Part shown: piece after piece, positions 3,001 to 6,000 of the stretch
Layout of the letters: every line of letters begins with the position of its first letter
Numbering within the stretch: position 1 is the first letter of the stretch
IMG/VR virus record: IMGVR_UViG_2531839661_000011
Source of the DNA: a virus
Lineage: Duplodnaviria; Heunggongvirae; Uroviricota; Caudoviricetes
Length of the DNA stretch: 15,995 nucleotides
Reading direction: 5' to 3' (one strand)
Program-made: the position numbers

Positions 3001-6000
3001 CAGGCTATCACGAAAGCCGTGACGGACTCAAAGCACTGGGCGCAGAACGTCACCATTACATTAATCTGGCACGCGCAGAGAACCGTGTTACAGGTCTGGT
3101 GGCTGGAGAACGCAGCACAGCCAGCGAGCAACAGTTAGGCTTACTGATAGTCATGCAGAAAATCGAGCAGGCAGCATTTGACGAGGCGATACAGAGCGGC
3201 ATGACACCGACCGAAGCGGTGCGGGAGGTTGCCTGCCGCATGGAGACGTTCGCCAGCCTGATGACGTCAGCGCCGTCTCTGGGGGTGAATCATGCGTAAT
3301 TATGTTATCCCTCCCAATCATGAAGGCGGTTATATTTATGTGGCGCTTTCTGACATTGGATTAGTTAAGGTTGGAAAAACCAGAAATGTTTCAGCCAGAA
3401 TGAAACAGCTATCCACTGGTAGCGGCATAGTAATCACTAAAGTCGAGGTGTTAGGGCCATTTGTTAATTACGGACAAGTCGAATTAGCTATTCATGCAAA
3501 ACTTACATCAGAACGCCGTTCTGGTGAGTGGTTTTCTGCTGATTTTGATACGGTTAAAGCAATTGCTATCGATACATCAGGAATAGGTACTCCTGGTGCG
3601 GAATTAGTTAACAACGATGCTTATCGCTACGAACGCGTGTTTTTATGGTTTAGTGCGCATGAGGAACAAATTAAATACGAACAAGCACTTTGCGAAATAT
3701 TATCTGATACGGCAATTAACTTTCTTAAGGAGTATGGCACAGCTTGCGCCCCATATGTTGCTTTATGTATTCACACAATGGGGGGTGTAACTCTTCAACA
3801 GGGACAAAAGGCCTACTCTGTATATCCTTGTGGATTTAAAGAGTCCACATTGGATCAGTTAAGGGAGGATTGGAATAATTTTGCAGATAAAGATATTTTC
3901 GAAGACTCTGATTTTGATGATTTTCTTATAGACATAAGTGATAAAGATAAATTTAAGTCAGAAGCTGAGGAATGGAGAACTGATGCAATAAATAATCTTT
4001 TCACAGAACTCACCGATGATTACCAGCGCTGGCTGGCCCGTCGCATGGGAGAGCATGAACATGCCTGACATCCTCAAACCTGCTGTCCGGTACATCGACA
4101 CGGCGGATAAGTTCGCACTACTGAACATCAACCATGCTGATTACATGCGCCATATCGTGAGCCATTTCGCCGCTGAGCGCATGAAACACGTTAAGCATTA
4201 TCAGAAGGAGGCTTTATCAAATTATCGCACTGGTGGCCCTGTACGGCGCGAATATCCGCATGATGCAGGAATGGCAGGCAAAACAAAGGCGACCACGAAA
4301 GGGTCGCCAGTGGAGATAAAGGAAATCAAGCGCATCACCAACTATGCCATGAGTGTAGCTGGTGGACAATGCTATCAGCCAGGCGGTCGGTTTTTAGTGG
4401 CTTTTAACCGCCGTGGGTATTTCTCGACAAAATCTTCAAGGGCAAATTTTTTAGCTTTTGTATGTGATGCCTTTGACTCGTCATCACATGTTTTTCCGCG
4501 CCTTATCCTGTTTTCAATAAAACGGGAGGCGGCCTTTTTATTCAGCGATGAATCAATGGGGCTGCTCCCTGTTTGCTGCTCGACAATGGCATCCATGAGT
4601 AGTTGGTGTTGTAGTTGTCGTAAAAATTTCTCATCTTCTGGTGGTAAATCCATACTTATTTCCTGTACAGCGGAGCGACGCAGCACCTCACACCACGGCG
4701 CTGATGGTTGTTATTCGTTTTATGGAGTCAAAGAAGCAAAAGCGGATCGCTATCGGTTTTTAGGCGAGATTAATCGCCGTGGGTATTTGTCCAGAAATGC
4801 CTCAAGCGCAAATCGTTTTGGTCTGGTGAGAGGAGAGGGATTAAGCAAAGACTCACGTTCCAGGCGTACTTTTTCGCGCTGGCGCTCAAGTATGGATAAT
4901 GCGATTTCCTGTAATTCTTCATTTGTCATTGTCTGTACCCGTAAAGCGGTGCGCTGTAGTACCTCATATCACAGCGCAGGTATTTTTTATGGTTGTAATT
5001 TGCGTGATGATTCAGGTCGCTTTGCGACATACTGCATAAACATAAATAACGTGATGTTATTATGTGCTTTCAAAGAAAACGCAGGTATTTTTCGCACAAA
5101 CTTCTCTCGCAACACATCCGACCACTTAAGCAAAAAAGCGGCATATACTGAGGCTATCCCTTATAAAACGGGGATCGGGCGTAGGAACCCGTTTAACTGT
5201 GAGGCGACAAATGACGCCAGAAGCGTCTTTTTTTCTGCCAGCGATTTACGCCATATCAATGGTGTTGTGCATTGTGCGTACCCGTGCACCATCCAGTCAT
5301 TTCACGAGTTGCATTTTGCACAGCGCCACCAGCAAACAATGGTGATGCTGGCGGGGCTACCGAAAGGTAGGCCGGAGTCCTTACAGTCCGGTATTCCTAC
5401 CCCCGCCAGTGTCACCGCCCTGTGTGAGCGTAGGAACTCCAGCGGTGACGTTATTTATCACTGTAAGGAGGCTGCCACTATGGCTACTACCCCTACCCTG
5501 GTACATTCTCAAACCGCCTTCATCTGGCGCTTTATCACTGTTGGCACGTCAGAACGTCAAATCATCCACGTAACCGCCTGGACGGAACTCGAAGCGCGTA
5601 ACCGTTGCCCGTCAGGTTGCGTTGCTGTATTCGCCGCCCGTATCCGTCAGGAGGCATCACATGGATAAAAACATGTTGATCGCCTCTTCTTTCGGGCTGT
5701 ATGATGCCGGAGTCGCCCACATGGCGACCGGGTTTAGCAGCCTGAATAAATTGGCGGACAGCCGCCCATATCCGATAAGCGGTTTTTTTGTGTCCGTAAA
5801 CCTACCCATACCCGCATTATGGCGGGGCGTAACGGGGGAGCCTTTGCGCTCGCTGGTTTCCCAATTTGCCAGTCTGCTAACCCTGTTACGTCTCGCCACC
5901 ACGTTTAGCAGCGTAGTAGCGAGACTCCTTAACATTAAATTGGGAGCCTTTCACATGGCTGTATCCGCACGCCCTTACTTTGTCTGGCGCTTTATGCAGT

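Follow-up and report, generated by a model that had tools for sequence, protein, structure and literature searches.

In the phage-inducible chromosomal islands (PICIs) of Gram-negative bacteria, the gene for AlpA, the master activator that is induced by the helper phage (PMC11773190, PMC10111431), is followed by a Bro zone that combines domain-swapping Bro-network genes with immunity RNAs (PMC10111431). T5orf172, a domain of the GIY-YIG nuclease superfamily, has been recognised as part of the Bro network (cited in PMC8096241), and it is absent both from the ten Bro-network Pfam families reported in PICIs and from the main text of that study (PMC10111431). Precedents exist for effectors derived from nucleases or homing endonuclease genes (HEGs) in the conflict between satellites and their helpers, namely NixI and CapR of the satellite PLE and Odn of the phage ICP1 (PMC8096241, PMC8263062, bioRxiv 10.1101/2021.07.12.452122). 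Odn (Gp88) is a T5orf172 nuclease of a Vibrio phage that cuts the replication origin of PLE (PMC8263062), and its E180A substitution abolishes cleavage of that origin both in vitro and in vivo (PMC8263062). Here we analyse IMG/VR virus record IMGVR_UViG_2531839661_000011, a stretch of 15,995 nucleotides (nt; hereafter the window) that is an Escherichia coli PICI beside yicC, and within it a T5orf172-domain gene. We found that this gene forms a cassette of the Bro zone and changes places with an AntA antirepressor-type cassette at fixed junctions. Our best reading, which we hold tentatively and put a little short of an even chance, is that it encodes an induction-timed, catalytically competent nuclease effector of the Bro zone.

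The gene is an open reading frame (ORF) with an ATG start that encodes 258 amino acids (aa), and it is 100% identical in the chromosome of E. coli O43 RM10042 and in 10 other complete genomes. Its parts are as follows.

3292..4068 (+): complete coding sequence (CDS) of the T5orf172-domain protein, WP_001247065.1, named 'GIY-YIG nuclease family protein' by PGAP
3292..3299 (+): start junction ATGCGTAA, where the gene's ATG overlaps the stop codon (3297-3299) of the Rha-like gene by 8 nt
3305..4028 (+): cassette body exchanged with the AntA body, defined from pairwise maps and the trough in GC content
3328..3567 (+): T5orf172/MUG113 domain (GIY-YIG superfamily), aa 13-92, from Pfam
3337-3339 (Y16), 3367-3369 (K26), 3397-3399 (R36), 3481-3483 (E64) and 3526-3528 (E79), all (+): catalytic-type codons, in invariant columns
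3592..4023 (+): acidic, family-specific C-terminal domain, aa ~101-244, made of helices, a three-stranded sheet and a long terminal helix
4024..4068 (+): common 45-nt tail encoding QRWLARRMGEHEHA and the stop codon, found unchanged in the AntA allele of 68 further E. coli genomes; GC 0.64

The slot that this cassette occupies became apparent when the gene was compared by megablast with 5,426 complete E. coli genomes. The whole gene is present in 22 of them, and 68 more match the last 45 nt only, inside a single gene annotated 'antA/AntB antirepressor'. The AntA body is found in 83 genomes at a coverage of at least 80% (124 with any match), and the body of the window's Rha-like gene in 33 at that coverage (60 with any match). 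Between the window and two AntA-carrying islands, L006 and L007, identity ends at 3304 and restarts at 4029. A conserved junction, 'GGGGTGAAtcATGCGTAATTATG', is identical in all three and provides an MRNY- start for whichever body comes next, T5orf172 or AntA, and the tail carries the ribosome-binding site and start (ATG 4061) of the following ORF. A leader of the form MKxxxxPVQGQGFxxPE stands on the first gene after alpA, be it Rha, AntA (L002) or a single-gene T5orf172 homologue; stand-alone T5orf172 homologues thus bear the leader themselves, and it is kept in Providencia, at 42% identity, and also where the integrase and AlpA protein of the island differ (L007). The slot is arranged in the following ways.

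Leader, AntA body, tail: L002 (E2855 and many O157, O111 and O103 strains)
Leader, T5orf172 body, tail: L004 (strain A17)
Leader, Rha body with its stop overlapping the ATG, MRNY, truncated AntA: L006 (O145:H28 RM13514) and L007
Leader, Rha body, MRNY, T5orf172 body, tail: the window and L003

The boundaries of the swap are identical in three backgrounds (L004 against L002, the window against L006 and L007, and L003 against L012), with breakpoints that correspond to window positions 3304/3305 and 4028/4029 in every comparison and that coincide with the GC trough. L003 and its near twin L012, from extraintestinal pathogenic E. coli (ExPEC) XM, are 99.4% identical up to the Rha stop; beyond it the T5orf172 body of L003 (724 bp) gives way in L012 to a complete AntA body (691 bp), identity restarts at the QRWLA tail, and a Bro-N gene follows the slot that is frameshifted in L003 and intact in L012. 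The Rha body of the window is 94% identical to that of the AntA-carrying L006, whereas its homologous 3' two-thirds are only 87% identical to those of the T5orf172-carrying L003; judged from these sequences, the phylogeny of the T5orf172 gene is decoupled from that of the adjacent Rha gene. BLASTP and hhalign comparisons of the T5orf172 protein with the AntA allele match only the leader and the tail, and no AntA, ANT, P22_AR or Bro-N domain was hit by Pfam in the T5orf172 protein. This is segment swapping of the Bro-network kind, in that the leader is common to Rha and AntA proteins, the tail is common to AntA proteins and a Bro-N gene comes next in L003. A preliminary description of this DNA had framed the gene as cargo of the satellite. 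That framing does not hold, as the gene occupies the Bro zone right after alpA and is allelic with the AntA cassette in the three backgrounds.

An exchange of this kind might be driven by the cassette itself. As a selfish homing endonuclease cassette ('intronless homing'), it would cut the AntA allele or the junction of related PICIs, and repair through the leader or MRNY junction and the QRWLA tail would copy the body in. T5orf172 genes are homing endonuclease genes at the genetic-exchange boundaries of phages (PMC10448857), nuclease-driven mobilisation of Bro genes has already been proposed (PMC10111431), and the replacement of the AntA body at identical boundaries, decoupled from the Rha phylogeny, is in keeping with such a process. 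We nevertheless consider homing an unlikely explanation. The window also breaks from L002 at 2624-2630, which means that sharp edges bracket the Rha and AntA cassettes as well, and because the boundaries of these non-nuclease cassettes are equally sharp, the mosaic is not specific to the T5orf172 gene. Moreover, in-frame fusion to a common leader and tail together with translational coupling is unusual for free-standing homing genes, and the T5orf172 body is the minority allele, in 22 genomes against 83-124 with AntA.

Several rearrangements touch the slot. In O145:H28 and related strains a deletion has shortened the AntA gene that follows Rha (L006 5556-5813, L007 5248-5505); it looks to have been mediated by a short repeat, CTGGCTGG, common to the AntA body and the tail, and it leaves an out-of-frame fusion to the downstream ORF. 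In E. coli OkiPb01713 (L015, NZ_AP042682.1 4358500-4392000) the island has undergone an inversion beside a copy of IS3, and both the Rha-like gene and dinD are broken by it; the T5orf172 gene is intact there, 99.5% identical, and is parted from alpA by the inversion. This genome had been a candidate for one with both T5orf172-positive and T5orf172-negative islands, and it proved to hold a single island split by the inversion. The equivalent junction of IS3, truncated Rha and T5orf172 is present in 2013C-4974 (L005).

The composition of the cassette sets it apart from its surroundings. The GC content of the gene is 0.400 (0.305 at third codon positions, GC3), against 0.529 (GC3 0.542) for the Rha-like gene upstream, 0.509 for the primase and 0.523 for the integrase. 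The body, at 3305-4028, has a GC content of 0.390 and is the most GC-poor 724-nt stretch of the window, 0.2% of all stretches of that length being equally low. Counted in lines of 60 nt, GC is 0.25-0.43 within the gene and 0.58 and 0.60 in the lines that flank it, so the hand counts of the preliminary description match the computed values. That description went on to suggest a recently acquired cassette, of which one half stands: the cassette is discrete and compositionally foreign, as would also be expected of a homing gene. The other half, recent acquisition, we reject, because diverged E. coli alleles, at a synonymous divergence (dS) of 0.43-0.48, all hold 39-41% GC. Low GC is therefore a persistent property of the cassette lineage and not the mark of a very recent arrival.

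The distribution of the family also speaks for an old association. A word-indexed search of 5.8e9 proteins, repeated with a profile, recovered full-length relatives in ~12 clusters (90% identity), with lengths of 278-287 aa and identities of 39-83%, and no other protein of full length; the clusters come from Escherichia, Salmonella, Providencia and Xenorhabdus. Among 185,579 species-representative genomes a single one holds a full-length relative, as does one IMG/VR contig, which at 15.1 kb is of PICI size; none was found in 50,697 phage records, where the N-terminal domain alone matches at 32-36% identity. The relative lies just downstream of the AlpA gene in Providencia rettgeri, Salmonella enterica and Xenorhabdus beddingii (adjacent to it in Salmonella, with one small ORF between in Providencia and Xenorhabdus). 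In all three species it stands upstream of small ORFs and the primase/DUF927 gene of an int-alpA-primase island, and in Salmonella and Xenorhabdus an Ash gene comes next. Because the family holds the same slot in four genera, we conclude that the T5orf172 gene is an old, sparse resident of the post-alpA slot rather than a recent add-on. A fixed site in four genera is also what would be expected of a site-specific homing gene. Between the E. coli alleles, however, the ratio of nonsynonymous to synonymous divergence (dN/dS) is ~0.23 overall, 0.11-0.12 for the N-terminal and 0.22-0.33 for the C-terminal domain, which points to a functional gene constrained by purifying selection; that both domains are constrained, and that no decayed copies were seen among the homologues, counts against homing. 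The Providencia rettgeri island (L008, JBKGVK010000005.1, 1-5346) comes directly after prophage tail genes (tape measure, DUF1833, NlpC/P60), a setting that resembles the helper-embedded arrangement of PICIs (PMC10111431). A homologue of antitermination protein Q is found near the T5orf172 gene in the Xenorhabdus (L011 2441-2869) and Salmonella (L010 4458-4902) islands.

The N-terminal domain looks catalytically competent. Two Pfam models cover residues 13-92, MUG113 (E 4.3e-11, 43.7 bits against a cut-off of 22.3) and T5orf172 (E 8.4e-10, 39.5 bits against a cut-off of 20); both lie above the gathering score, confirming the domain assignment of the preliminary description, and T5orf172/MUG113 domains were also detected in every homologue. 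We aligned the window protein with eight homologues that are ~41-83% identical to it, and Y16, K26-V-G28-K-T30, R36, E64, H68 and G78-E79-W-F81 are invariant in 9/9 full-length sequences. Degeneracy of the motif, which had been named as a possible weakness of the nuclease assignment, was thus not found, the catalytic-type positions Y16, K26, R36, E64 and E79 being kept in all nine. Alignment by hhalign with I-TevI, the sequence of which was verified against PDB 1MK0/1LN0, pairs K26 with Y17 and R36 with R27. With Odn, Y16/K26/R36/E64/H68 correspond to Y127/K138/R148/E180/H184 in an alignment that is weak (hhalign probability 30%, 28% identity across 61 columns). Like Odn, the protein lacks the helix-1 His/Tyr found in most GIY-YIG enzymes. 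In the AlphaFold2 (AF2) model (pLDDT 79.6) the order of strands and helices in this domain is b13-20, b25-30, a33-44, b48-57, a60-70 and a85-96, a GIY-YIG-like topology; the top Foldseek matches in the PDB are GIY-YIG domains (1zg2, 1ywl and 1ycz), but weak ones (E 0.3-2.4). Together, the two alignments and the predicted topology locate the invariant residues at a GIY-YIG-type active site. The first 100 residues are basic, with an isoelectric point (pI) of 9.0. By the standard used for the sole T5orf172 enzyme to have been tested biochemically, the catalytic motif appears intact, and since the residues for metal-dependent DNA cleavage are all kept we predict that the protein is a nuclease. Intact catalytic-type residues would equally suit a homing enzyme.

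The same residues bear on a second explanation, in which the protein does not cut at all and is a Bro-network regulator or antirepressor analogue that does the same job as AntA, with the T5orf172 fold as a binding scaffold and the acidic domain sequestering a DNA-binding protein of the helper or host, such as a repressor. The gene is a positional allele of a protein of the AntA antirepressor family, and its neighbours are Rha and, in L003, Bro-N genes; Bro-network proteins are often regulators, and the CapR protein of PLE, a repressor, is a fragment of a homing endonuclease that has been domesticated (PMC8096241, PMC10111431). We think it improbable that this accounts for the gene. It leaves unexplained why all the catalytic-type residues are invariant, including the glutamate that corresponds to E180 of Odn, and the N-terminal domain is the more constrained half of the protein (dN/dS 0.11). 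Similarity to AntA or ANT domains, by sequence or by profile, is confined to the common leader and tail, and CapR represents the opposite case, in which the DNA-binding domain was kept and the nuclease domain lost.

The C-terminal half is acidic, as the preliminary description had noted: residues 101-258 include 32 D/E against 15 K/R and have a pI of 4.4. Modelled alone, the domain folds confidently (pLDDT 86.8, pTM 0.77): one long and two short helices come first, then a sheet of three strands, another short helix and an acidic loop, and a terminal helix of 40 residues closes the chain. The profile and structure checks that had been proposed for this half returned that confident fold and no sequence or fold relatives. 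Pfam, PHROG and NCBIfam matched nothing outside aa 13-92, and a HMMER search of 1.84e9 representatives with the C-terminal domain yielded two true relatives, both members of the same family. Two large tetratricopeptide-repeat (TPR) proteins (P0012 and P0013), in which a 30-aa stretch was matched many times, were set aside as repeat-amplified chance similarity, because the AF2 model has a beta sheet directly after that helix. A search of PDB sequences with the family alignment profile gave only a chance match to glutamate dehydrogenase (E 0.93), a search of BFVD with the domain gave no relative, and no DNA-binding fold was detected for it in fold searches. Homology to the C-terminal part of the AntA allele was likewise rejected, as hhalign pairs only the common leader. 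The domain has no zinc finger, helix-turn-helix (HTH) signature, invariant cysteines or basic surface signature. Being acidic and well folded, it is more likely to bind a protein partner than to recognise DNA directly. These properties also bear on the explanations above. An acidic domain suits the protein binding or DNA mimicry expected of a non-catalytic regulator, and a strongly acidic non-catalytic half in a protein that carries no CapR/DUF723/DUF4397 zinc finger, HTH, AP2 or NUMOD module and no invariant cysteines is a poor fit to a homing endonuclease.

The organisation of the operon suggests when the protein is made. The gene's ATG (3292) sits within the final codons of the Rha-like ORF 2580..3299, and its TGA (4066-4068) overlaps the ATG at 4061 in ATGCCTGA, although PGAP puts the start of the next CDS at 4016. 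The earlier statement that both ends of the gene overlap its neighbours is borne out by the junctions ATGCGTAA and ATGCCTGA; for the downstream neighbour it applies to the ATG at 4061 and not to the 550-aa ORF 4016-5668, which is probably not one real gene. As that statement had it, the gene appears, from the overlapping codons and the gene order of the window, to be translationally coupled to the preceding Bro-network gene in an alpA-led operon of the satellite. No sigma-70-like promoter was found on the + strand between 1900 and 5676, and the gene lies between alpA and the C4 immunity RNAs, which are downstream of it. Expression only on induction is suggested by this position upstream of the C4 RNAs and by the lack of a detectable promoter of its own.

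This arrangement is difficult to reconcile with a constitutive role in anti-phage defence, in which a stand-alone nuclease would restrict unrelated phages to the benefit of both host and island. The protein does have a nuclease-type domain, PICIs and P4-like satellites are known to carry defence systems (PMC9122126), and PADLOC reports a domain-level match to PDC-S57 (E 1.4e-8, aa 23-91 against profile positions 18-89 of 212). That match is not full-length and covers only the common T5orf172 domain, and PDC-S57 is itself a candidate system. The gene lies in the alpA-led Bro zone and not in an accessory or hotspot region, it is translationally coupled with no promoter of its own found, its partners in the slot are regulators rather than defence genes, and no typical defence-system partner genes adjoin it. 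We regard defence cargo as very unlikely.

For the induction-timed nuclease effector, the sequence of events would be as follows. The protein would probably not be made before AlpA fires, on the induction of a helper phage or infection by one; the acidic C-terminal domain may then recruit it to a DNA-bound protein partner, and the N-terminal domain would nick or cut the DNA of the helper or of a competing element. In this way a nuclease cassette may fill the same functional slot as the AntA antirepressor-type cassette. A more specific proposal, which we consider doubtful, is that this PICI nuclease, in replacing an antirepressor, docks on a DNA-bound protein of the helper or host and nicks the DNA, and thereby either blocks helper replication or packaging or triggers the SOS response and so derepresses a resident helper prophage. 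A number of points weigh against the effector reading as a whole. The conserved residues could serve structure or DNA binding without catalysis, the searches with the C-terminal domain yield no functional clue, and allelism with AntA indicates a common slot, not a common function. The model of operon and timing is drawn by analogy with P4 and published PICIs. Finally, the family is rare (22/5,426 E. coli genomes and 1/185,579 species representatives), and any role must therefore be dispensable for the propagation of PICIs.

The surrounding island is of a familiar type. In RM10042 it lies right after yicC, and the window reads, in order, a tyrosine integrase, a hypothetical gene, an AlpA/HTH_17 regulator, the Rha-like gene, the T5orf172 gene, an Ash/Icd-like region with small ORFs, a P4/D5-type primase, SSB, ProQ/FinO, three PerC-family ORFs, a Q-type antiterminator and the chromosomal dinD, which is the four-zone layout of PICIs (Integration, Bro, Replication, Late). 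No capsid, terminase or tail genes are present in the window. Identity with EcCIEDL933 was rejected, as that element is a capsid-forming PICI and the window has no capsid genes. The features that adjoin the T5orf172 gene are as follows.

2237..2512 (+): alpA-type HTH gene that heads the operon, from Pfam HTH_17 / Phage_AlpA
2580..3299 (+): Rha-like (Phage_pRha) Bro-network gene, from Pfam and PHROG 2657/518
2580-2630 (+): leader MKRPNMPVQGQGFVQPE, 17 codons that open the Rha-like gene, common to the first gene after alpA
4061..4372 (+): small ORF, a possible gene, which contains a Rha-like segment and the start of which overlaps the T5orf172 stop
5335-5422 and 5815-5903 (+): two C4 (P4 CI-like) immunity RNA genes, Rfam RF01695, 69.0 and 73.3 bits (gathering score 45)

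Between the alpA stop (2512) and the leader ATG (2580) lies a stable, GC-rich hairpin at 2519-2546 (+) with a 10-bp stem, GACGGGCG...CGCCCGTC; the 96-nt region around it folds at -30.9 kcal/mol (z = -4.0 against shuffles), and no T run follows. The hairpin falls within the part conserved between AntA and Rha alleles and could serve the Bro-zone genes as an element for processing or attenuation. On the other side of the T5orf172 gene, the product of ORF 4061..4372 matches Rha aa 94-139 with 37% identity (BLASTP, E 3e-7), including the common PVRREY motif, and gives no Pfam or PHROG match; it is a further Bro-network fragment downstream of the slot. The 550-aa ORF 4016-5668 (+), called 'host cell division inhibitor Icd-like protein' by PGAP, is probably a chance read-through. 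Phage_ASH matches only its aa 377-498 and the Icd-like model only its last ~45 aa, the middle is Ser/Cys/Arg-rich, and the frame crosses a minus-strand ORF of 103 aa (4375-4686) that is followed by a terminator-like hairpin at 4288-4308 (-), GGCGACC...GGTCGCC with a T run. Only its first ~100 codons are plausible as a coupled ORF.

The two C4 RNA copies are ~480 nt apart, lie within duplicated Ash/Icd-like frames and mark where the Bro zone ends downstream. The related island L002 is without ~760 nt that correspond to window 5179-5943, so that one of the copies seems to have arisen by tandem duplication of the immunity unit. A 75-nt direct repeat (4387-4461 and 4753-4827, 75% identity, 366 nt apart) flanks a segment that is missing from L002. 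In the distal part of the island, beside the ProQ/FinO and SSB genes, are the PerC-family frames at 10387-10689, 11611-11913 and 11618-12082 (+), one of them partial or overlapping; a PerC homologue from another E. coli PICI is reported to repress the locus of enterocyte effacement (LEE) (PMC11773190). An antitermination protein Q homologue lies at 13418-13816 (+) (Pfam E 1.1e-51), near the right end of the island and far from late genes.

No part of Gram-negative PICIs is less well understood than the Bro zone behind alpA, where the specificity of satellite for helper is thought to be set. If the more specific proposal above, of docking and nicking, is correct, the T5orf172 protein would be the first effector with nuclease activity to be described from the Bro zone of PICIs of the E. 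coli type, and a new protein-targeting domain would gain a function. The ~150-aa acidic domain, a confidently folded orphan, might define a new targeting module. Nature has supplied an experiment, since the nearly isogenic islands of SCEC020022 and ExPEC XM, 99.4% identical to the junction, differ only by a T5orf172 or an AntA body; their comparison might reveal the function of the slot, a substitution of nuclease for antirepressor, or nuclease-driven shuffling of cassettes. Because Shiga-toxigenic and other pathogenic E. coli harbour such islands, which encode PerC-family regulators, the choice of helper and mobilisation are of practical relevance.

Set against what has been described before, the GIY-YIG name given by PGAP, the Bro zone with its domain swapping and the membership of T5orf172 in the Bro network were already known. 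New here are the T5orf172 family as an occupant of the Bro zone, its exact allelism with AntA at fixed junctions, the restriction of the family to PICIs of a few Enterobacterales, and an architecture in which the nuclease domain precedes an acidic orphan domain and no DNA-binding module is present. The closest counterpart by position is the Bro-zone AntA allele (for example WP_000828535.1 of E. coli E2855 and WP_050436474.1 of ExPEC XM), which stands at the same place, after int/alpA and before the Ash/C4 region and primase. It has the same leader or MRNY junction, the same 45-nt tail and the same translational coupling, and is exchanged at identical boundaries; it differs in its unrelated body, with an AntA domain where the window protein has a GIY-YIG-type nuclease domain. 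Odn shares the Y / K-x-G / R / E-x-x-x-H residues and a phage-satellite relationship, and in its own genome it adjoins Bro-N/ANT or Rha-type genes (PMC8263062). It is, however, encoded by the phage, and its T5orf172 domain is C-terminal, behind a RepA_N DNA-binding domain at the N-terminus, whereas the window protein is encoded by the satellite, has the reverse domain order and carries as its second domain an acidic orphan with no DNA-binding signature. The T5orf172 HEGs of ICP1-, T5- and VpaJT-like phages (PMC10448857), I-TevI and the T4 Seg proteins resemble our gene in nuclease family, location at exchange boundaries, presence/absence polymorphism with conserved flanks, and low GC. These homing enzymes carry CapR/DUF723/DUF4397 zinc-finger or other DNA-binding modules and lie near essential phage genes; the window gene has none of those modules, is fused in frame or coupled inside a regulatory operon of a satellite, shows purifying selection and is present in four genera. 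NixI of PLE would be a functional analogue if nicking blocks helper replication or packaging. CapR, finally, descends like the window protein from the T5orf172 homing-endonuclease lineage, is likewise encoded by a satellite and acts against or on the helper phage, as the window protein is proposed to do, but the two have kept different domains: CapR retains only the DNA-binding domain and acts as a repressor, while the window protein keeps the nuclease-type domain and is without that DNA-binding domain.

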